A stretch of DNA of 54,607 nucleotides from a virus (lineage: Duplodnaviria; Caudoviricetes). Positions 23,175 to 43,550 of this stretch are shown here, piece after piece. The DNA is taken from positions 1 through 54,607 of the IMG/VR virus record IMGVR_UViG_3300042507_001934; one strand, given 5' to 3'. The translations under genes and the position numbers were made by a program. The notes beneath the pieces were generated by a model that was not told where the DNA came from, did not search any database, and was given only the letters and a program-made list of their open reading frames with translations. The stretch's first letter is position 1, and the number at the start of each line of letters is the position of its first letter.

Positions 23175-23396
23175 TCAATCGAGAATACCTTCAAGTTCCA
23201 AGGTATTCGCTACTTCTTCTGGCACTACAATACGGATTACTTTCTCCCCGTCAAGGAAACCAAGAGTTTCTTTCACGCGAATATCGCTTTTCTTTACCCA
23301 ACATTGGTTGAACTTCTGACGGAACAGAATCTTAGTTGGGTTCTCACTTACTTCGGTTCCTTCGCAAATGATGCGGGATTCAAACGTTGTATTCAT
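23175..23396 (-). CDS. Hypothetical protein
   Basis: 73 aa, coupled to the HNH gene. Confidence 0.65.
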   Translation of the reverse strand: MNTTFESRIICEGTEVSENPTKILFRQKFNQCWVKKSDIRVKETLGFLDGEKVIRIVVPEEVANTLELEGILD

Positions 23397-23697
23397 AAAT
23401 TAGATAGCCTTTCTCTCTGGCCCATGCAGGGTTGTCGTGGATTTTATTATGGCAGGGACGGCAAACCGCCATGAATGTTGCCATGTTGCAAAGGTTCTTA
23501 CCTCGCTTTGCCTTATGATGAATGTCAGTAGCTGGACAACCGCACACTTCACAATTCGGTTTAAGGTTGAAATAAAGTGTCCGTGCCACTTTATACTTTT
23601 CATTTTCTTCACGCTTGCGGTCACTGAATGCCTTTAGTTTTCCTCCGCGTTTTTTGAAACCCGTTTTTGCTTTAAGTGGGGTTTTTCTTCGTAGCAT
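23380..23697 (-). CDS. HNH endonuclease
   Basis: CEVCG..ATDIHH...N.....VCRPCHNKIH. Confidence 0.85.
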   Translation of the reverse strand: MLRRKTPLKAKTGFKKRGGKLKAFSDRKREENEKYKVARTLYFNLKPNCEVCGCPATDIHHKAKRGKNLCNMATFMAVCRPCHNKIHDNPAWAREKGYLIYEYNV

Positions 23698-24622: not shown

Positions 24623-24768
24623 TCAGTTGCACGAGAAATTGTGCCTCGGCGTGGAAACCGAGTAATAGAAGATTAAATCGAAATACAAATATCACCTTCC
24701 TGCCATAGAGCTTTCCACCCGACATTCAATCGGTCTTCTTTCTATGGCAGGGGGTGGCCCTTCAAAAA

Positions 24769-25764
24769 ATGATACCTGTAAAACAACCTCAACGCCTATT
24801 CACGCGAATGAAGAAGGCAGTGTTGAGAGAAGATATGATGGCACTAACGCAAGAGGTAACTCAAGCGATGGTTCTTGGACAGATGCTGTATTGGACAAAA
24901 ACCTTGGACAAAGTAAACGATTGGTTGTTTGAGGAGAATAAGCGGTTGGCAGAAGTTGAGCTTCCACAACACGAATATAACTATGGTTGGATTTACAAAT
25001 CAGCACGGGAAATGCGTGAAGATTTGATGAACGCTTTTAGTGAAGACGCAATTCAACGGGCATTCTCGGCACTCGTAACCAAAGGCGTTTTAATGAAAAG
25101 ACACAACCCAATTGTTCGATATGACAGGAAACTTCAGTATCGAATCGACATCGTTTTTTTGCGTCGTTTGCTTAAAGATCGTGGTTATGAAATGACAGAT
25201 TTTCAACTTGCAACCATTCCGCAAGAAGCGGCGTTCATTCCGCATGGTGCGGTATCAATGACGCAAGGTGCGGAAACAATAACAGAGACTATAACAAAGA
25301 TTACAAACAAAGAAAACCTCCTAACCTCCTTGAAGGAGGAAGAGGAAAGTTCGGCAATGGCCTCACATTCCTCGGAAGTAGTAACTCAACCAAATCTATT
25401 CCCGACTAACCCAAGTGAAGCTAACGCTTCGGGTTCGGCTAACGCCAAACTGAACTCTGCCGATGGCAATGGAACTACCCCCCCAATTCCGCTCGCCCCC
25501 CCACGAACCAAACGAGCTACCCAAATCGAAAAGCCAAGCGGAGTGAGCGAGCAAGTCTGGAATGACTTCATCGCCCTCCGTAAAGCTAAACGCGCCCCGC
25601 TATCACCAACGGCACTCTCGGTCATCGCCAAAGAAGCTGAGAAGGCAGCGATGCACATCGAGGAGGCATTGACCGAATGCGTCACCCGTGGATGGCAGAG
25701 CTTCAAGGCTGAATGGATCAAACCAAAAACAACAACCAAACCAGAACGATTCTCCAACTTTTGA
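24769..25764 (+). CDS. Replication initiator / replisome organiser (lambda O-like)
   Basis: N-terminal wHTH (VLGQMLYW...WIYKSARE...SEDAIQRA), low-complexity linker, C-terminal VWNDFIALRKAK...GWQSF domain; upstream of dnaB. Start is 24754 or 24769. Confidence 0.75.
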   Translation: MIPVKQPQRLFTRMKKAVLREDMMALTQEVTQAMVLGQMLYWTKTLDKVNDWLFEENKRLAEVELPQHEYNYGWIYKSAREMREDLMNAFSEDAIQRAFSALVTKGVLMKRHNPIVRYDRKLQYRIDIVFLRRLLKDRGYEMTDFQLATIPQEAAFIPHGAVSMTQGAETITETITKITNKENLLTSLKEEEESSAMASHSSEVVTQPNLFPTNPSEANASGSANAKLNSADGNGTTPPIPLAPPRTKRATQIEKPSGVSEQVWNDFIALRKAKRAPLSPTALSVIAKEAEKAAMHIEEALTECVTRGWQSFKAEWIKPKTTTKPERFSNF

Positions 25765-25799: not shown

Positions 25800-26738
25800 A
25801 TGAATGAGCTACACTTATTTGCTGGAGCAGGGGGAGGAATCCTCGGCGGGATGCTTCTCGGACATACCACAGTCTGTGCTGTCGAACTTGAACCTTACTG
25901 CCGAAAAGTCTTACTCCAAAGACAACGAGACGGCATCCTGCCAAAGTTCCCAATCTGGGATGATGTCACCACATTCGATGGAACTCCGTGGAGAGGAAAA
26001 GTCGATGTCGTCTGCGGAGGATTCCCTTGCCAAGACATATCAGCAGCAGGCAAAGGAGCCGGGATCACAGGAGAGCGAAGCGGACTCTGGGGAGAGATGG
26101 CCAGAATCATTGGCGAAATACGACCTAAATACGCATTCGTGGAGAACTCACCAATGCTTACTCTTCGAGGACTTGACCGAGTGCTTGGCGATCTTTCCGA
26201 GATGGGGTATGATGCACGATGGGGAGTTGTGGGAGCTTACCATGTCGGCGCACCTCACAGAAGAGAACGAATCTGGATTACAGCCAGACGGGATAAATTT
26301 CTTTCATACTCCCAACACAACTGGACTGGATGGGGGCAGCAACAGCAGGAAAGCGTTGAAGAAAAGACAGGAGATGATATGGCCAACTCCACGCAGTTGT
26401 TCAGCAATGGCGGCAACGATAACTCCAGAGTCGGCCTGGAACGAGAATCGTTTTCCAAACTTGGAAACAATTGTGGGGCAAAGAATGTGGCCAACCCCAT
26501 GTGCAAGCGACAATCGGGACAGGGGTCATGTTGGTATGCCAGCGATCCAGCGGAGAAAAGAGAAGGGGAAACAGATAGGGCTTGGTCAGAGCGTGTCGGA
26601 CACATCTGGGGCATTGAATCCAGATTGGGTCGAGTGGCTGATGGGGTGGCCAATCGGGTGGACAGACTTAAAGCCATTGGAAACGGGCAAGTTTCAATCG
26701 TGGCAGCAACAGCATGGAGAATACTTGGAGGAGAATAA
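25800..26738 (+). CDS. C5 cytosine DNA methyltransferase (motifs I-VIII and X)
   Basis: LFAGAGG (I), GGFPCQD (IV), VENSP (VI), PHRRERIW (VIII), RLKAIGNG (X). Confidence 0.92.
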   Translation: MNELHLFAGAGGGILGGMLLGHTTVCAVELEPYCRKVLLQRQRDGILPKFPIWDDVTTFDGTPWRGKVDVVCGGFPCQDISAAGKGAGITGERSGLWGEMARIIGEIRPKYAFVENSPMLTLRGLDRVLGDLSEMGYDARWGVVGAYHVGAPHRRERIWITARRDKFLSYSQHNWTGWGQQQQESVEEKTGDDMANSTQLFSNGGNDNSRVGLERESFSKLGNNCGAKNVANPMCKRQSGQGSCWYASDPAEKREGETDRAWSERVGHIWGIESRLGRVADGVANRVDRLKAIGNGQVSIVAATAWRILGGE

Positions 26739-26742
26739 ATGA
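25804..26742 (+). CDS. Overlapping +1-frame ORF carrying the motif IX-like segment and WPTP repeats (putative second MTase subunit)
   Basis: 312 codons open; FHTP/WPTP/WPTP repeats; LNPDWVEWLMGWPIGWTD; stop overlaps the dnaB ATG. Confidence 0.7.
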   Translation: MSYTYLLEQGEESSAGCFSDIPQSVLSNLNLTAEKSYSKDNETASCQSSQSGMMSPHSMELRGEEKSMSSAEDSLAKTYQQQAKEPGSQESEADSGERWPESLAKYDLNTHSWRTHQCLLFEDLTECLAIFPRWGMMHDGELWELTMSAHLTEENESGLQPDGINFFHTPNTTGLDGGSNSRKALKKRQEMIWPTPRSCSAMAATITPESAWNENRFPNLETIVGQRMWPTPCASDNRDRGHVGMPAIQRRKEKGKQIGLGQSVSDTSGALNPDWVEWLMGWPIGWTDLKPLETGKFQSWQQQHGEYLEENK

Positions 26743-27971
26743 AAAAAGTCCCAATAGCACGAAAGAGTGAAGCGGCAGCATTGTCGCTGATAGCAATCGA
26801 CAGAAACATACTTTCCCAACAAACATGGGATAGTGGTTATTTCGCCATAAACGCCAACAGGATCGTTTTTGAAGCTCTCCAAGGGGTTCACCAGCGGACA
26901 GGTGTTTGCTGCCCGTTCTCCGCCATCGCAGAACTGGAAGCGACAGGAAAGTTAGATGCGGCGGGTGGTGAAGAATCTGTCCATGACACATTACGCACGA
27001 TGAACGTAGCGTCTGGTAAGGTTTGCCAAGACATGGCAGACGATTATCGGAAACATCTTCACCGCACTAAAGCCTACCGAGATGTTCTTACTCTCATGGA
27101 GAAGGAAGAAGTAAACCTCCGCGCAGGCAAAGCGGATTTGAAAGGATTATCGGAAACGATAATGAACTTGGCCGAGGATCGGACAACAAAAGTAAAACCA
27201 GTCAAAGACCTCATCATCGAAATCATTGATGAGATGGAAGGTAAAGCTGTAAAGGAATTCTTTCCTACTGGATTGCTGAAAGTAGATCGTGCGCTCAAAG
27301 GTGGAATGCACAAAGGCGAGATGATGACAGTAGCATCAGAGACTGGTGGTGGAAAATCCATCTACCTTGTCCAAGCTGCACTCGCCAACCTGCAAGATGG
27401 AAAGTCAGTTCTGTTCTTCAGCCTTGAAATGAAAGCAAAGGACATCCTAACTCGTATGGCTTGCAACTTGGCAGGGTATCCGGTGCGTGAACCAGAGGAT
27501 TACAAAAACGCCAACCAACACGAACTCCTAAAAATCAACTCCGCATTGTTGCAATTACACCAGTTACCCCTCGAAATCGTGGATGGAGTAGCCGAAATTG
27601 ACGAGATTGAGGCCCAAATCAACCGATACGTTGGAGAAAAACGGGCAGATGTAATTGTTGTAGATTACCTCCAAATCATCTCATCTGACGGGGAAGAAGG
27701 CAGAGAAAGCCAGATTTCGGAGATTGCAAGGAGATTAAAACTCGCAGCACTGAAGAATAACTCGATTATGCTTACTGCTTCCCAACTAAACGACGAAGGA
27801 AGACTACGCGAATCACGGGCTATTGGAATGCACTCTGACCAAGTAGTGTATATCGAACACATCAAAGAGAAGAGCAGGCTGACGATCAAAAAGAACCGCC
27901 GAGGTGCGAGGAACTACATGACAGAAATCGTCATGCGTGGTGACATCTCAAAACTTGAGGAGGTATACTAA
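26739..27971 (+). CDS. dnaB: DnaB-like replicative helicase
   Basis: ASETGGGKS, FFSLEM, VVDYLQ, SQLN...LRESRAI, KNRRG. Confidence 0.92.
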   Translation: MKKVPIARKSEAAALSLIAIDRNILSQQTWDSGYFAINANRIVFEALQGVHQRTGVCCPFSAIAELEATGKLDAAGGEESVHDTLRTMNVASGKVCQDMADDYRKHLHRTKAYRDVLTLMEKEEVNLRAGKADLKGLSETIMNLAEDRTTKVKPVKDLIIEIIDEMEGKAVKEFFPTGLLKVDRALKGGMHKGEMMTVASETGGGKSIYLVQAALANLQDGKSVLFFSLEMKAKDILTRMACNLAGYPVREPEDYKNANQHELLKINSALLQLHQLPLEIVDGVAEIDEIEAQINRYVGEKRADVIVVDYLQIISSDGEEGRESQISEIARRLKLAALKNNSIMLTASQLNDEGRLRESRAIGMHSDQVVYIEHIKEKSRLTIKKNRRGARNYMTEIVMRGDISKLEEVY

Positions 27972-28165
27972 TGACAACTGACCAAGCATATGGAAAAGCG
28001 TTAAAGTATTTGGAGGCAGCAAACTCAATCTGGGAAGCTCAAGACAAGGAAAGGTATTGCATCGCAGAGAACTATCATAATGAAGGACTCAAGATAATGA
28101 ACCAATACTTTTCTGAAACAAAAGTATTGACACAGATACAAGATATTGATTCAATGCTGCCATGA
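27971..28165 (+). CDS. Hypothetical protein
   Basis: 64 aa, coupled on both sides. Confidence 0.65.
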   Translation: MTTDQAYGKALKYLEAANSIWEAQDKERYCIAENYHNEGLKIMNQYFSETKVLTQIQDIDSMLP

Positions 28166-28365
28166 GTGATACACCAGAGACGGATGCGCTAATTTCAAAA
28201 GCTGGATTTGGTCCAACCGCATGGGAATGGCGACAGCATTCCAGACGGCTTGAACGCGAGCGAGACGAGGCGAGAGCGGAGCGGGACATCCTGCGGCTTA
28301 ACTCGCTTGGAACAATTCAACTGAACATCCCTGTGACTACCGATTGGAAGGAGGAAACAAAATGA
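28162..28365 (+). CDS. TPETDA/ERERDEAR array protein 1
   Basis: MSDTPETDA...RRLERERDEAR...WKEETK. Confidence 0.75.
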   Translation: MSDTPETDALISKAGFGPTAWEWRQHSRRLERERDEARAERDILRLNSLGTIQLNIPVTTDWKEETK

Positions 28366-28676
28366 GGAAGCGACCTACACCAGAGACGGATGCCTTCGCA
28401 AAGGCGATGTATTCGAGAGGAGTGGACTCCCACCACGACGGTCGTGAAGCACTTAAGCACGCGAAAAGGTTAGAGCGCGAGCGCGACGAGGCGAGGAAAT
28501 TTTCCAATGATCTAACAGACAAGTATCTGGAAGCAACAGGCCATTTGCAACGCGAACGAAACGAACTGCTAAAAGCGATGAGAGAGATATTAAAAGTCTC
28601 AGAACCTACTCCAGTTCTGACATATCAAAAAATGGAAGATATTGCATCAAAAGCATTGAAGGATACAGCAAAATGA
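28362..28676 (+). CDS. Array protein 2
   Basis: MRKRPTPETDA...KRLERERDEAR...KDTAK; ATGA start. Confidence 0.75.
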   Translation: MRKRPTPETDAFAKAMYSRGVDSHHDGREALKHAKRLERERDEARKFSNDLTDKYLEATGHLQRERNELLKAMREILKVSEPTPVLTYQKMEDIASKALKDTAK

Positions 28677-29128
28677 GTAAATATAAATTAATTAATGATC
28701 AGTTCAAAGACAAGTGGATCAACAAACCAAACAATATGGGGGATGTTGGAGATTTACAGGATATAACGGATGAGCTAAACAATTTGTTGCATGAGCGCGA
28801 CGAGGCGAGGGAGGAGATCAGCAGCATCCGCAATGTGCTATCCCATAACGGACAGGCCGTTGGAGATGGAGATCATGATTATTCAATTATTGAAATGATT
28901 GAAAATTTAATTAAATCAAGGTATTATTTTGTTCAAAAAAGCGATTCATTAGAGCAAGAGCGCGACGAGGCGCGGGATATACTGCGTAAATTACTGGAAA
29001 TTATTCCAGAACCAGAATGCCACGACTTCGGACATACCAAAGAAGAACAACACGCTTTTCTTGAAAAGTGTCCAGTTATGGCTCGTTACGATGCGCTCAT
29101 CGCACAAGCAAAGGAGGCTGCAAAATGA
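28673..29128 (+). CDS. Array protein 3 (two ERDEAR blocks)
   Basis: HERDEARE and QERDEARD; ends KEAAK. Confidence 0.75.
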   Translation: MSKYKLINDQFKDKWINKPNNMGDVGDLQDITDELNNLLHERDEAREEISSIRNVLSHNGQAVGDGDHDYSIIEMIENLIKSRYYFVQKSDSLEQERDEARDILRKLLEIIPEPECHDFGHTKEEQHAFLEKCPVMARYDALIAQAKEAAK

Positions 29129-29304
29129 GTGATACAGCAAACCAATGGATAATGTTAGTTGCAGTAATTTTTTTGATTGCAGGAACTTTCGTGGTATCAA
29201 ATCAGCGAGATGAATTAAAGGCAGAAGCCGTGAAGCGAGGATTTGCGGAGTGGGTTTCTGACTACAACGGCAACACCACATTCAAATGGAAGGAAACAAA
29301 ATGA
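29125..29304 (+). CDS. Array protein 4 (membrane-anchored)
   Basis: MSDT + hydrophobic helix WIMLVAVIFLIAGTFVV + QRDE; ends WKETK. Confidence 0.7.
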   Translation: MSDTANQWIMLVAVIFLIAGTFVVSNQRDELKAEAVKRGFAEWVSDYNGNTTFKWKETK

Positions 29305-29570
29305 ACAAACCAACACCAGAGACGGATGCCTGCTGGGATAGTGCCAGTTGCAACCTGCTTCACCACGCGCAAAATATGGAGCGCGAGCGAGACGAGGCGC
29401 GAGAGGCTTTGGATCGCATTGCTCGCCCAGTGTGGTGGATGCAAGAAGACCAGAAAAGAAAGACAGGGAGCATTAACGGCATTAGTGGGGGAATGGCTCT
29501 CGCCTTGTCGGAAGATGCAGAATACCTCAAGGGAATTGCTAAGTCCGCATTGAAAAGGAAAACAAAATGA
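29301..29570 (+). CDS. Array protein 5
   Basis: MNKPTPETDA...MERERDEARE...KRKTK. Confidence 0.75.
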   Translation: MNKPTPETDACWDSASCNLLHHAQNMERERDEAREALDRIARPVWWMQEDQKRKTGSINGISGGMALALSEDAEYLKGIAKSALKRKTK

Positions 29571-29980
29571 GTGAGCGACCTACACCAGAGACGGATGCGT
29601 GCATAATTGAACGCCGTAAAATTCATAAGAGCGATGGCAGCGTTCAATTAGTAGAGTTAATTGATGCAGAATTTGCACGCCGACTTGAGCGCGAACGCGA
29701 CGAGGCGCGGGATAAATACGATGCACTCGCAACCGAGCATATGCTGGCGGTTAATAAATTGTGTGAAGAACGCGATGAGGCGCGGGAGAAAGCCCAAAGA
29801 TTGCGAGTCCAATTAAATCATTACACGCAAGCAAATGAGATGGCGGAGCAAGCCTTCCGTGAACGAGATGAAGCGCACAAAATTGCGGAGCAAGCCATTG
29901 ACGATTTGGCGTGGTTCAATGAAACAAATGCACAGAGACTTCGAAATGAACTTGAACAACTTAAAGATGAAAAAAATTAA
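29567..29980 (+). CDS. Array protein 6 (three ERDEA blocks)
   Basis: MSERPTPETDA...RRLERERDEAR...EERDEAR...RERDEAH. Confidence 0.75.
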   Translation: MSERPTPETDACIIERRKIHKSDGSVQLVELIDAEFARRLERERDEARDKYDALATEHMLAVNKLCEERDEAREKAQRLRVQLNHYTQANEMAEQAFRERDEAHKIAEQAIDDLAWFNETNAQRLRNELEQLKDEKN

Positions 29981-30254
29981 ACGACCCACACCAGAAACAG
30001 ATGCGGAGTCATTTTGGCCGCATTATTCAAAATATAAAGTTTGCGATGTGGAATTTGCTCGCAAACTGGAACGCGAGCGCGACGAGGCGCGGGAGGCATT
30101 CAAGATAGTTTACAACGAGCGAGTCCAAATGGAACTTGAGCGTAACGAATGGAAAAACAAAGCATACTCTCATGCTACAGACTACACTCTAATGGAAGCG
30201 AAGTGCTTTAGATTGGAACAACAACTCAAAGAATATGATAAACTCAAGAGCTAA
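29967..30254 (+). CDS. Array protein 7
   Basis: MKKIKRPTPETDA...RKLERERDEARE. Confidence 0.75.
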   Translation: MKKIKRPTPETDAESFWPHYSKYKVCDVEFARKLERERDEAREAFKIVYNERVQMELERNEWKNKAYSHATDYTLMEAKCFRLEQQLKEYDKLKS

Positions 30255-30564
30255 AGGCGCAAGAGGAGAGCGGCAGTGGAGAGATCAGCTTCGCGCCGAA
30301 GGCTACACCGCTAAACGAGGACAACAATTCGCAGGAGGACAAGACTCACCAGATGTAATCTGTGAGGAACTCAAAGGTAAACTTCATTTCGAGGTAAAGT
30401 GCGTTCAGAATTTGAATTTAGATAAGGCTTGCGAACAGGCCGAGCGAGATGCTAAAGGCATTGCTTGGGCAGTAGCTCACAAGAAAAATAATAAGAACTG
30501 GAAGGTAACAATCCCTGCCGACACGTTCTTCAAACTACTAAGGGATGGAAGTGACGGACTATGA
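30235..30564 (+). CDS. Holliday junction resolvase (Hjc-like PD-(D/E)XK)
   Basis: NSRAKGARGER...SPDV...HFEVK. Confidence 0.8.
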   Translation: MINSRAKGARGERQWRDQLRAEGYTAKRGQQFAGGQDSPDVICEELKGKLHFEVKCVQNLNLDKACEQAERDAKGIAWAVAHKKNNKNWKVTIPADTFFKLLRDGSDGL

Positions 30565-30746
30565 AACCAACAACCAAAGCAGGTAAGGCCGCGAAGGTGG
30601 CAAAAACAATGCGTGAATACAAAGCTGGCAAATTGAAGGCTGGCATCAACCCTAAAGGCCCGAAGAAAGCACCAATGGCTAAGAGTCGCAAACAGGCAGT
30701 TGCAATTGCACTCTCACGCGCAGGAATGGCTAAGAAAAGCAAGTAA
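30561..30746 (+). CDS. Small Lys/Ala-rich basic protein
   Basis: KVAKTMREYKAGKLK...SRKQAVAIALS. Confidence 0.75.
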   Translation: MKPTTKAGKAAKVAKTMREYKAGKLKAGINPKGPKKAPMAKSRKQAVAIALSRAGMAKKSK

Positions 30747-40311: not shown

Positions 40312-41297
40312 TATTGCTCCTTCAAGAATCTCTGCCATTCGTTCTCTGCTGGATCGAACCATGACTTGTCGGACAGGTCGATTAAGAGTTGGTGTTCTTC
40401 TACTTCTTGCGGCATGGAGCGGAGGACTTCCGAGTTAGAGAAGTTGCCCATGTTGAGGAGCAGGAAACGATGACCAGATGGTTTGTCGTCTTTACCTTGC
40501 TCGCTACGCACTCGGTTCCTAACCTCAGTTGAGGATAGCTTCTCGGTCTTCGCGGCTTGAAGAAGCTCCTGCTGTTTCTTGGTGCTGTCATCTCCGAAGT
40601 TTGCGTTGCCAATCTCACGATAGACTGTGAATGGAAGGGCAGGGTCACGCTTGTCAGCAGGGAAAGCACGGCAGGCACGGGCATAACCAGAAACAGTCGG
40701 ATAACTTTTCTTGAATTGGGAGCAGAGTTGATTGACTACATCCTCATGCCCTGCATTCTCCAAGGCTACTACTGAGTCGCCAATGATCCATTGCGCCCCG
40801 CTTTCGAGAGTCAAACCGAAGGCGAATGCTGCCACCCAGTCCTTCATATCTACTTCACCTTTAGGAACGCACTGAGTCATTCCCGATCCGATGTCGAACT
40901 TCTGTGTGAATGAGGAGAGTTCCAATCCGTTCTTCACGCTCTCCACGAGGGCGAGCGATTCGTTGACTGGTTCTTCGATAGGTTCATCTTCGGTCAGTTC
41001 AACCTCAACTTCTTCCACTACGGGATTAGCCAAGCGTTCTTCTGCCATTTCCTCGGCCATGTCCAAGTCTGCTGACATTTTCTCAAACATCTCTAGCATT
41101 TCATCTGGTGCATCGTCTTCAAGGTATTCGTTCTTCGTTACCTTCGACCATGCCTTCTTGATGTGGGTTTCGGTGATGTTGATACCCGGCCATTCGGTCT
41201 TAACATACTCGGCCATTTGAGTTAGGTATTTTGACAGAGGGACAATGATTCCCTCTTGAGTTGGGCTGAACAATTCTAATTCTGGTTTCTTTTTCAT
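40311..41297 (-). CDS. Putative DNA-binding protein
   Basis: AQWIIGD...KKSYPTVSGYARACRAF...LPFTVYREI helical HTH-like region; acidic N-terminus. Confidence 0.55.
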   Translation of the reverse strand: MKKKPELELFSPTQEGIIVPLSKYLTQMAEYVKTEWPGINITETHIKKAWSKVTKNEYLEDDAPDEMLEMFEKMSADLDMAEEMAEERLANPVVEEVEVELTEDEPIEEPVNESLALVESVKNGLELSSFTQKFDIGSGMTQCVPKGEVDMKDWVAAFAFGLTLESGAQWIIGDSVVALENAGHEDVVNQLCSQFKKSYPTVSGYARACRAFPADKRDPALPFTVYREIGNANFGDDSTKKQQELLQAAKTEKLSSTEVRNRVRSEQGKDDKPSGHRFLLLNMGNFSNSEVLRSMPQEVEEHQLLIDLSDKSWFDPAENEWQRFLKEQ

Positions 41298-41336
41298 TTT
41301 GGTGTTATTAGGTTGGGTGTTCTGGGAGGAACAGAA

Positions 41337-42158
41337 TCAATATGGAATCTCGTCTGCTTCCTCTTCAACAGGGGCATCGAGGTTGAGGTCTATTGCGGCT
41401 TGCTCTACGCACTTAGCGAAGGGAGTTGTAAATCCTTTCTCCAAGTAAAACTGGTAGAGTTTAGTGAGTGCAGGCTTGCCGATTGCACCGAGTTTTTTAT
41501 CCTTGTGCGATCCGCTTGGGACGATAGCAGATGCCCAGTCAGCGGGGTCGAGTTCTGCTTTTGGTTCCTCCACTTTAGGTTCTGACTTTGGTTCTGACTT
41601 GGAGATGGAGATTCCTTTCCGATTAGCTTCGATGAAGACCGACGAGACATACGCCCGAAGAGTCTCCTCATCTGTTACCTTTCCAAGGTATGCCATACGG
41701 ACAAGGCTATCAATGTAGAGGTGAGTCTCCACGATGCGATCAAGTTCCTGTTCGGGATTATCGGTTACGATACTCTTGGGTGTTGATGCAACACGGACAG
41801 GTTCTTCACTCACGCCATCGTATTCCAACTTCGCCGAAGCTGAAACCTTGATGACTTGGTTGTGAATCTGCTGACCTTCTTTGTTCTTGTAGGACTCCTC
41901 TTCAAAGGTAACTCCGTTCAGACCATGCTTGCCGCGAGTCGAGGACAAGGTGACTGTCCTACCCTTCGCAGATTCTGGTTGTGTATTCTTCCAGAAGGCG
42001 AGTTTGTATGTTTTCCCATCCACTTCAATCTCACCATTCTGGATGGTGTATGGGCCGTAGTTACCTTCGTGTTGCTTCTCTGGAAAGAGTTTAGTGATCT
42101 TCCCTGTTACTTTCTTGATGATGTCTTTAGGCTCGATGCCTTCTAATTGGTTACTCAT
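41337..42158 (-). CDS. Probable single-stranded DNA-binding protein
   Basis: OB-fold-like beta N-terminus; acidic C-tail EEEADEIPY; next to the exonuclease. Confidence 0.6.
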   Translation of the reverse strand: MSNQLEGIEPKDIIKKVTGKITKLFPEKQHEGNYGPYTIQNGEIEVDGKTYKLAFWKNTQPESAKGRTVTLSSTRGKHGLNGVTFEEESYKNKEGQQIHNQVIKVSASAKLEYDGVSEEPVRVASTPKSIVTDNPEQELDRIVETHLYIDSLVRMAYLGKVTDEETLRAYVSSVFIEANRKGISISKSEPKSEPKVEEPKAELDPADWASAIVPSGSHKDKKLGAIGKPALTKLYQFYLEKGFTTPFAKCVEQAAIDLNLDAPVEEEADEIPY

Positions 42159-42265
42159 TTTAATATTAATGTCATTGTTGCGGATAATGCTCCACAAATT
42201 ATACCTGCTGTGAATCCTAATATAATACCTATTAAGGCAAATTTGGTTGTAGGATTAATTCTCAT
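42155..42265 (-). CDS. Small membrane peptide, 36 aa (not in ORF track)
   Basis: MRINPTTKFALIGIILGFTAGIICGALSATMTLILK; overlaps both neighbours. Confidence 0.5.
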   Translation of the reverse strand: MRINPTTKFALIGIILGFTAGIICGALSATMTLILK

Positions 42266-42498: not shown

Positions 42499-42697
42499 TT
42501 GGTTTGTTTGCTAATTGTTTGTGGATGGACGCTGCCATCATTGTTATGTCGTGTTCTGGTTCGTTTGCAATTATTGCGCTGGCTAACTCGTTTGCTCTAT
42601 GCCGCCAGATTAGTGTCTCGCGGATGTAGTGCTTGAGCATATCAAGAGACTCATCGAGTCCCTCAACATTTTTACTCAGCAGTTCCTTTATTTCCAT
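42491..42697 (-). CDS. Hypothetical protein
   Basis: 68 aa, coupled. Confidence 0.6.
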   Translation of the reverse strand: MEIKELLSKNVEGLDESLDMLKHYIRETLIWRHRANELASAIIANEPEHDITMMAASIHKQLANKPNE

Positions 42698-43550
42698 AGG
42701 TTGCTTTGTAGTAGTGACAGAAGGGTGCTACTGAGCAATAACGCTCGCATCGCATATCCCCGCCATTTCGTTTTTCGATTGAGTGTTTCGCGCCATAGGT
42801 AGGAAGGAGTTGTTGTGCTTCCTCAAATGTTTCGCACACTTTTGCTGCTCGTTTGTTTCCGTCCTTCTTGATGGCAAAGGTATCTGGTTTAGCCCAGCGT
42901 TCCTTTGGATCACAGCATGGAATGGTATCGTCTGGCATTTCAGCCGCCGCTTGGTGGAGTTTGATCCGTTCCGTAGCGTAGGCTATGCACTCTTCGTTAT
43001 CCCAAAGAGGTATGTCTACAATGTGGACTGCACACTGAGGATACTCTTTGTCAAACTCAGCCTTGCTTGCCTGCCAATCACGAAGGATAGCGACGATCTG
43101 GAGTTTCTTTGGGGAGTAGCCATACTCTCTCCAAAGTAGGGCGTTGCAGTTGAGTTGGGCTACCCACTCAGATTTTTGTCCGAGAAGAAATGAGAAGACT
43201 GAAGTTACTTTGAAGTCAGAAAGGATTCCTTTCTCCACTTCGTAGAGGTCAGTCTGTCCGGTCAGCGTCCATCCATTGATCTCTTTGTATAGACGCTTCT
43301 CAGTCATCTCATCCTCGCCTCCAGCCAGCTCAAGAACTTTATGCACTGACTGACCAAGTAATGCCCACACCCTATCGGATGCGTCTTCTACGATCTGGTC
43401 AGAGTAGCGTTTCTTAAGTTGGTTGATTTTAGGTGGCCCGATCAAGGTAGTTACTGAGATGTCTGCCTTCTTTGTTCCTGCCATATACCCATCATGGGAA
43501 AGAGCGCGAAACATAGGGGCGGGTAGCCCGAAGTTATTCGTGATCGTCAT
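42672..43550 (-). CDS. PD-(D/E)XK exonuclease (Cas4/RecB-like)
   Basis: GQSVHKVLE...E...GQTD...DFKVT...QLNCN; C-terminal RCERYCSVAPFC. Confidence 0.8.
   Translation of the reverse strand: MTITNNFGLPAPMFRALSHDGYMAGTKKADISVTTLIGPPKINQLKKRYSDQIVEDASDRVWALLGQSVHKVLELAGGEDEMTEKRLYKEINGWTLTGQTDLYEVEKGILSDFKVTSVFSFLLGQKSEWVAQLNCNALLWREYGYSPKKLQIVAILRDWQASKAEFDKEYPQCAVHIVDIPLWDNEECIAYATERIKLHQAAAEMPDDTIPCCDPKERWAKPDTFAIKKDGNKRAAKVCETFEEAQQLLPTYGAKHSIEKRNGGDMRCERYCSVAPFCHYYKATYGNKGTAE

Follow-up and report, generated by a model that had tools for sequence, protein, structure and literature searches.

The array of coupled genes and its repeated blocks

The stretch of DNA analyzed here (the window) is the complete IMG/VR virus record IMGVR_UViG_3300042507_001934, which has a length of 54,607 bp and a completeness estimate of 100%, and whose source lineage is an uncultured lake phage. 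Within its replication module, between a dnaB-like gene and the small open reading frame (ORF) o0 on the left and a RusA-like Holliday-junction resolvase gene on the right, lies an array of seven small ORFs, o1–o7, which are linked in a chain by ATGA or longer overlaps. Short DNA blocks, designated TPETDA and ERDEAR after the peptides they encode, recur in this array and separate variable segments. An earlier note on the window had proposed that the blocks are sites at which such segments are shuffled in frame, yielding a variable library of small coiled-coil proteins. The structure of the array, the behavior of the blocks in related genomes, and the explanations that may account for them are described below. 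The features of the locus are the following, all on the + strand.

26739..27971, +: dnaB-like replicative helicase (phrog_19, 1.8e-52), conserved left flank
27971..28165, +: o0, 64-residue ORF, left anchor of the variable interval
28162..28365, +: o1, 67 residues; an N-terminal module and a short C-terminal module; TPETDA at 28171, ERDEAR at 28258
28171..28187, +: TPETDA DNA block; other copies at 28377, 29313, 29582 and 29988
28258..28272, +: ERDEAR DNA block; other copies at 28479, 28793, 28958, 29385, 29693, 29768, 29861 and 30075
28362..28676, +: o2, 104 residues; TPETDA at 28377, ERDEAR at 28479
28673..29128, +: o3, 151 residues; ERDEAR at 28793 and 28958, no TPETDA block
29125..29304, +: o4, 59-residue membrane peptide; a non-family cassette whose hydrophobic stretch is visible in the translation
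29301..29570, +: o5, 89 residues; TPETDA at 29313, ERDEAR at 29385
29567..29980, +: o6, 137 residues, five modules; TPETDA at 29582, ERDEAR at 29693, 29768 and 29861
29967..30254, +: o7, 95 residues; TPETDA at 29988 (two synonymous changes), ERDEAR at 30075; the 3′ end overlaps the resolvase start
30235..30564, +: RusA-like Holliday-junction resolvase (phrog_244, 1e-18), right anchor

Six of the seven array ORFs are members of one protein family, and o4 represents a separate cassette family. The TPETDA block is a 17-mer that is exact at its first four positions, and its fifth copy, at 29988, carries two mismatches, both synonymous. When both strands of the whole window were searched with up to three mismatches allowed, these five copies were found against 0.08 expected, and none was found elsewhere. 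The ERDEAR block was searched as a degenerate 15-mer, which matches at eight of the nine listed positions and, with one mismatch, at the diverged ninth (29861). The expected number is 0.25, and every copy lies on the + strand between 28258 and 30089, so that all the blocks of both kinds are on this strand inside 28171–30089. A third recurring element, read directly in the sequence and contained in repeat families D4 and D6, is a stop/start junction of the form AAGGA...AAAATGA, which precedes positions 28362, 28673, 29125, 29301 and 29567. The local GC content along the array is 0.35–0.56, and 12 of the 15 bases of the ERDEAR block are G or C.

These results confirm what the earlier note had described: seven coupled ORFs between dnaB and the Holliday-junction resolvase gene, the five TPETDA positions with the synonymous changes of the last one, the nine ERDEAR positions with the diverged copy, the five stop/start junctions, and blocks that are GC-richer than their spacers. 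One qualification concerns the distribution of the blocks: both kinds are present in o1, o2, o5, o6 and o7, while o3 has no TPETDA block and o4 has neither block.

Exchange of gene content and modules among related loci

The relatives of the locus were collected by a DnaB-based scan of IMG/VR, in which 113 of 120 pattern-matching stretches were found to encode relatives. The best 80 (99% to 55% identity) were used, and the interval counts given here cover the 68 of these loci that hold both the dnaB end and the resolvase start, or 69 with the window. The interval between these two points, o0 included, ranges from 193 to 2338 bp with a median of 601 bp in the 68 loci. As for the number of family ORFs per interval (n = 69), none is found in 7, one in 48, two in 10, three in 2 and four in 1, and six are found in the window alone; two of the 69 intervals are entirely empty. 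The ORF o0 directly follows dnaB in 66 of the 68 loci, the exceptions being L012, in which a Mom gene precedes o0, and L085. Among the 18 loci whose DnaB is at least 93% identical, 17 different ORF sets were found. The earlier note had stated that shuffling would be refuted if relatives carried the same ORFs in the same order, and the close loci behave in the opposite way. Judged from these comparisons, the interval from dnaB and o0 to the resolvase gene is a gene-content hotspot of this lake-phage lineage.

Other genes also occupy the interval. A Mom-family DNA-modification gene is present in L012 (1782-2450; 6.5e-39), and a MazG pyrophosphohydrolase gene is present in L054 (7448-7753; 5.7e-07). 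Further small non-family cassettes, namely ORFs of 76, 67, 53 and about 105 residues as well as several membrane peptides, vary in the region after o0, and no Pfam family was found for them. For o0 itself, no family was found in Pfam, PHROGs, NCBIfam or PADLOC. The resolvase gene is mosaic in its own right: among near-identical genomes, its last third is either 0.98–1.00 or 0.73–0.77 identical, and the 300 nt past the gene differ in the same way.

In the translations of the loci, conserved in-frame motifs separate unrelated variable segments, and the proteins can be described as strings of modules. Cutting 77 unique proteins after each R[DN][DE] gave 240 pieces, which were grouped into 120 clusters at 60% identity or more. 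More than one successor was found for 25 of 89 modules, and more than one predecessor for 24 of 76. The extreme cases are an N-terminal module with 9 different successors, a C-terminal module with 12 predecessors, and an internal 25-residue module with 9 predecessors and 6 successors. Longer relatives of 241–335 residues were also found (23 proteins, none with a Pfam domain), and 8 of the 23, on inspection, are extended strings of the same modules. In the window, the module strings of o1 and o6 are 5-46 and 15-1-28-19-73, respectively. Modules 15 and 1 of o6 also occur in L009 and its modules 28-19 in L044, and the C-terminal modules 8-38 of o7 recur in L011, L032 and L058; the modules of o2 were not found in the 68 related loci. 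At the DNA level, the o3 segment 28793-28975 matches L033 at 77%, and the segment 28959-29129 matches L135 and L166 at 93%, the ends of both segments being blocks or a gene junction. L160, a locus of an unrelated lineage, shares 91% identity with 28258-28393, which begins at the ERDEAR block of o1 and extends to the next TPETDA block.

The earlier note had suggested that breakpoints should be mapped relative to the blocks, and four kinds of observation agree in placing them there. One is that, for module pairs with the same left and different right modules (n = 214), the median DNA identity is 0.73 before the block, 0.76 inside it and 0.30 beyond it, while for pairs with the same right and different left modules (n = 370) the corresponding values are 0.30, 0.81 and 0.76. 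Another is that L052, L055, L057 and L049 are 95–100% identical across 1.5 kb up to an ERDEAR block, fall to an identity of 0.25–0.35 for 61–305 nt past it, and return to 93–98% at the very first base of the resolvase gene. The third concerns the high-scoring segment pairs (HSPs) between the window array and all fetched loci: of the 60 ends of the 30 distinct internal HSPs, 40 are no more than 6 nt away from a block or junction (null 0.22), and 14 of the 30 HSPs have both ends so placed (null 0.06). Some of the exchanged units span an ERDEAR block, a gene junction and the next TPETDA block, as seen for 28258-28393 and 29771-30006. The last is that the synonymous codons go with the left module as far as about codon −3, and from about +6 onward with the right one, all classes of pairs being alike inside the block; the codon identity is 0.66 for same-left pairs versus 0.20 for same-right pairs at −7, and 0.24 versus 0.73 at +7. 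Because the codon linkage switches from the left to the right module there, the crossovers can be placed within the block. What these data show is shuffling between genomes of a population, not rearrangement within a single genome.

Predicted proteins, heptad register and distribution

An AlphaFold2 model of o6, made with 20 relatives, has a mean predicted local distance difference test score (pLDDT) of 89.8 and consists of a disordered region at residues 1–14, which holds the TPETDA peptide, a hairpin at 15–31, and a helix at 34–136. When o6 was modeled as a homodimer, the score was 0.66, as compared with 0.00 for the best of three controls; of the proteins solved as pairs, 20 of 30 attained this mark, and of those solved as single chains, 1 of 23 did. 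At least 94% of the contacts are common to the dimer runs, in which the pLDDT of the partner is at least 84. The contacts are in register (40-40, 44-44, 47-47) with a 3-4-3-4 spacing, and the Leu, Arg and Ala of the ERDEAR block are at predicted core positions. The model supports the view that o6 forms a parallel coiled-coil dimer, although support of this kind does not show binding. The prediction accords with the small coiled-coil proteins named in the earlier note. As to the shared docking helix of that note, the conserved helix is the one that begins at the first ERDEAR block; the conserved N-terminus is no helix and consists of the disordered TPETDA peptide and a variable hairpin.

The lengths of the modules fit this structure. 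Internal module lengths are multiples of seven in 21 of 45 clusters (chi-square p 1.9e-7), and none of the other moduli tried stood out for the zero class. In clusters from other lineages, the proportion is 25 of 53 (binomial p 1.1e-8). The common modules of 25 and 31 residues sum to 56 and exchange the two core positions. Since the core position of ERDEAR is fixed and the length of many modules is a multiple of seven residues, neither the reading frame nor the heptad register is lost in a crossover at a block. In-frame, in-heptad shuffling of modules at coding DNA linkers is well supported by these observations together with the breakpoints.

Searches of o0–o7 gave no credible family in Pfam, PHROGs or NCBIfam, with only sub-threshold coiled-coil noise, and no PADLOC defense family at E ≤ 0.01. 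No Foldseek match to the PDB was obtained at E ≤ 0.001, and in the ESM Atlas nothing was matched beyond clusters of hypothetical viral proteins and generic helical look-alikes. The possibility that the proteins are DNA mimics was considered and rejected: their net charges range from −12 to +4, and they are therefore not uniformly acidic.

The family extends beyond the lineage of the window. Matches to o6 at E ≤ 1e-3 include 630 proteins of 75–240 residues, and no Pfam domain was found among the best 120 of them. At least 599 IMG/VR stretches carry the peptide pattern, and at least 155 of those examined encode a relative. From these 155 confirmed relatives, found with a degenerate peptide pattern, 80 further loci were taken, 78 of which have no DnaB at 50% identity or more. 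A single family ORF is present in 54 of the 80, the next gene downstream belongs to a different RusA family in 7, and the neighboring genes are diverse (143 clusters for 261), often being related to replication or nucleotide metabolism. An exact 23-nt block was found in 76 stretches, of which about 50 are family ORFs on contigs with a GC content of 0.41–0.61; the matches at GC 0.64–0.73 lack TPETDA and look like chance. In GenBank phages, neither blastn of 26739-30564 nor tblastn of o6 gave a match, and the top DnaB match there, from Akkermansia phages, is only 26.7% identical. In cellular genomes, a relative is encoded by only 5 of the 410 stretches that match the pattern, each of the five being in a metagenome-assembled genome (MAG). 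One of them is on a 432-kb Terrimicrobiaceae MAG scaffold (L240:5452-6249), in which two tandem o4 homologues are followed by a family ORF and then by large ORFs. This region may be a prophage, and through this scaffold Verrucomicrobiota is a candidate host, as a lead and no more. Full-text literature searches returned no description of the motifs or of the protein family.

Competing explanations and relation to known systems

We consider that the interval is probably, as a whole, a hotspot of modular accessory proteins that exchange at short DNA tracts. The protein plan would be a disordered TPETDA peptide, a variable hairpin, and a long helix composed of a variable number of modules, from one up to about eight, that each have ERDEAR at their end. 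Identical short tracts (ERDEAR, TPETDA, and the junctions of ribosome-binding site and ATGA) would recombine, and modules and whole ORFs would thereby be swapped, gained and lost among co-occurring phages. Most recombinants would stay foldable as parallel dimers. The process may be short-homology recombination or template switching in replication at GC-rich tracts of about 10–25 nt, and may proceed with no dedicated enzyme; the uniformity of the blocks may be maintained by the same exchange and concerted evolution, or by selection for exchangeability.

The strongest competitor is that the array encodes nothing more than paralogous coiled-coil proteins of an ordinary kind, in which ERDEAR is a purely structural peptide motif, recombination is of the general homologous type and occurs at any place of sufficient similarity, the codons are shared by recent descent or hitch-hiking, and the identity of the DNA plays no part in itself. 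The codon usage of the blocks bears directly on this. The TPETDA codons ACA CCA GAG ACG GAT are kept in 44 contexts of the relatives. In 110 distinct contexts, the ERDEAR codons are GAG (85%), CGC (76%), GAC (87%), GAG (96%) and GCG (83%), followed by CGG or AGG, while in the long ORFs of the window the background is 37% for GAG, 20% for CGC, 39% for GAC, 16% for GCG, 6% for CGG and 16% for AGG. When a single representative was taken for each of 54 non-homologous left modules, these codons were found in 45 (GAG), 47 (CGC), 49 (GAC), 54 (GAG), 47 (GCG) and 47 (CGG/AGG) of the 54, against background shares of 0.41, 0.35, 0.36, 0.41, 0.22 and 0.19, respectively (p 2e-10 to 5e-27), and one of two 18-mers is present in 32 of the 54. 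Rare codons are thus common to modules that have no detectable mutual homology. The codons also hold in all three GC classes of the 78 loci without a close DnaB, that is, in phages of 41–61% GC, and run counter to the local bias in both directions: GAC is used in 29 of 29 cases in phages with GC below 0.5 (background 0.44), and the AT-rich TPETDA codons persist in phages with GC of 0.57 or more (ACA in 14 of 25 versus 0.15; CCA in 12 of 25 versus 0.18). Neither this pattern nor the abrupt fall of near-identical genomes to random identity exactly at the block is expected of ordinary paralogy, and we regard such paralogy as unlikely. Saturation of the synonymous sites in the blocks, by which the earlier note would have recognized simple old paralogy, was not what was found, since the same rare codons recur in the 54 modules and in unrelated phages.

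Nevertheless, several points weigh against the shuffling account, and some of them are what paralogy would give. Within a module family, the synonymous differences in the block (0.354) are not lower than those in the body (0.307). The comparison of block and spacer proposed in the earlier note therefore has two sides, with rare codons shared across modules on the one and this within-family result on the other. The values indicate that the block is uniform across modules and not frozen in each lineage; we read this as constant exchange, and the plainer explanation by paralogy fits too. The breakpoint enrichment at ERDEAR is modest in the whole dataset: among 60 unique intervals, only 20% of the HSP ends are within 10 nt of an ERDEAR core, versus 12% expected. 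The proportion becomes 37% versus 17% when TPETDA is added and 71% versus 31% when the ATGA junctions are added as well, and on these figures the junctions and TPETDA are used at least as much as ERDEAR. In the window, exact identity between ERDEAR copies has a median of only 9 nt and a maximum of 20 nt, the exact identity through TPETDA pairs being 8–25 nt. The predicted core positions of the motif Arg and Ala provide a reason for conservation at the peptide level, and the codon conservation could instead arise at the level of mRNA or translation. The mechanical splitting into modules also included a few non-family ORFs, such as o4. In addition, every sequence is from metagenome assembly and not from single-molecule reads, an annealase or recombinase was not recognized in the record (what was recognized comprises an exonuclease, the HNH gene, a helicase and the resolvase), and the function proposed below is inferred solely from the neighborhood.

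The genes of the window that are relevant to recombination, and those upstream of the array in the replication module, are the following.

23383-23697, −: HNH endonuclease gene (phrog_740)
24754-25764: O-like initiator of the replication module, upstream of the array
25800-26738: C5 cytosine methyltransferase, 312 residues (PF00145, 1.2e-32)
42675-43550, −: exonuclease (phrog_2139, 3e-52)

The ORFs adjoining the exonuclease gene (40314-42197) have no family and could conceal an annealase. A second 312-residue ORF (25804-26742) is open in another frame that overlaps the methyltransferase gene, one base further on. The sequence CCGG is strongly depleted in the window, with 47 occurrences versus about 137 expected from base composition, while GCGC (151) and CGCG (132) are not depleted; the array, which makes up 3.8% of the window length, carries 11–14% of the GCGC and CGCG sites.

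A dedicated diversifier, whether a diversity-generating retroelement, an integron-like integrase or a homing nuclease cutting at the blocks, is highly unlikely. The HNH gene of the window might be taken to suggest it, as might a gene of an unrelated lineage that encodes a fusion of a TPETDA/ERDEAR N-terminal module with an HNH domain (L144:10265-10750; PF01844, 5.4e-10), the same start being present in L104; such fusions, however, are rare. As the earlier note had stated, no reverse transcriptase or integrase is evident: the record gave no match to the RVT_1 profile, which did match control genomes, or to the tyrosine integrase profile Phage_integrase, for which 14 of 14 control genomes were positive. 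The repeat-family survey of the window likewise gave no template/variable repeat pair of the retroelement type.

It is also hardly credible that the mosaics arose in metagenome assembly, as chimeras formed at shared k-mers. The blocks are indeed repeated across co-occurring genomes, and Logan contigs end and branch at them, loose contig ends and joints accumulating there. However, the exact shared tracts in the window are 25 nt at most, and the usual final assembly k-mers and reads are longer than this. Part of the stretch was found in 20 runs from 15 studies of lake water and sediment, among which no RNA run is listed. Contig pieces with zero mismatches from two studies beyond the possible source tile 28132-30600 and bridge nearly all the blocks of the window. 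In a third run, a contig is mismatch-free over 29300-29599 and diverges just past the TPETDA block of o6. Six ORF sets are identical across different metagenomes (L014/15, L034-37, L041/42, L051/52, L061-63 and L072/73). As for the joints, an interpretation as deletions of the window genome was rejected, because their sides are short (20–44 letters) and other letters often lie between them; they are read as other family members that share the blocks alone, and were not counted as rearrangements.

Finally, functional nucleic-acid sites (iterons, protein-binding sites or RNA structures) with the ORFs as a secondary matter are very improbable, for all that the blocks are one-strand direct repeats conserved at the nucleotide level in a replication module: they are always in frame as ERDEAR within coupled ORFs, their spacing tracks the protein heptads, the 7 of 69 intervals with no family ORF, two of them empty, dispense with them, and the predicted folding of 41-nt segments around the nine ERDEAR blocks does not exceed that of shuffles (mean z −0.24), the structures differing among the blocks.

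Mosaicism of phages through recombination at short conserved sequences is accepted. To our knowledge, there are few clean cases of a linker that lies inside coding sequence and has its codons conserved among unrelated phages, and cases in which the linker is placed so that every crossover keeps a foldable protein are rarer still. Variable cassettes with short conserved borders and in-frame exchange are familiar from pilE/pilS, vlsE and the homology blocks of var genes, in which silent cassettes are copied into a single expression site within one genome. In the array, by contrast, each ORF has its own coupled start, and the observed exchange is one between genomes. Diversity-generating retroelements and integron cassettes resemble the array in being a localized library of protein variants or cassettes; the array differs from them in that it has no reverse transcriptase or integrase match and that its variation is segmental, not mutagenic.

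Two phage systems are closer. The PeSLs of T4-type phages are described as intergenic cassettes of promoter and terminator in hyperplastic regions, flanking non-essential variable genes (PMC2839356). As in the array, short conserved DNA motifs are associated with insertions, deletions and replacements between close relatives, and no dedicated recombinase is invoked (PMC2839356). Unlike PeSLs, the linkers of the array are mainly coding, lie within ORFs, keep the frame and heptad register, and yield chimeric proteins. The blocks also lack a predicted stable stem-loop, and enrichment was found neither for promoter-like sites (10 versus 7.3 ± 2.7 in shuffles) nor for terminator-like sites (7 versus 8.4 ± 2.9 in shuffles, with none on the + strand of the array). 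In the T-even adhesin gp38, a fixed number of four hypervariable segments lies between glycine-rich motifs of a virion adhesin (PMC3157838), and there too conserved in-frame motifs form a structural core and part swappable variable segments (PMC3157838). In the array, the number, order and length of the modules and the number of ORFs vary, and the locus is in the replication module. Homology to gp38 or a tail-fiber context was not found: the array proteins have no Pfam, PHROG or NCBIfam family, and the locus lies between dnaB and the resolvase gene. The array is set apart from PeSLs and gp38 by its coding linkers, structural register, free module number and order, exchange across genes, and linker DNA common to phages of very different GC content.

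The proteins may act as variable dimeric rods, for which the disordered TPETDA peptide would be a constant contact point. A role in conflict with host defenses or with other phages is suggested, tentatively, because the genes are dispensable and turn over fast and the hotspot also hosts Mom and MazG genes. Going a step further, and with a similar degree of hesitation, we suggest that TPETDA and ERDEAR could be portable, selfishly maintained coding linkers, whose DNA would stay identical because recombination spreads the modules bearing the canonical linker through many lineages of freshwater phages. The result would be a combinatorial assembly, in frame and in heptad register, that keeps producing new dimeric coiled-coil rods for conflict with no dedicated recombinase.

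The rule that emerges is simple: one block of 15–20 nt corresponds to one coiled-coil core position, and the modules come in heptad multiples. If the suggestion on portable linkers is true, the array would do at the protein level what the PeSL and integron cassette systems do at the level of genes, and would operate without a dedicated recombinase. Should the proteins turn out to be effectors in such conflict, the locus would show phages exploring protein space by the exchange of segments and not by point mutation, and would also offer a ready design rule for shuffled coiled-coil libraries.

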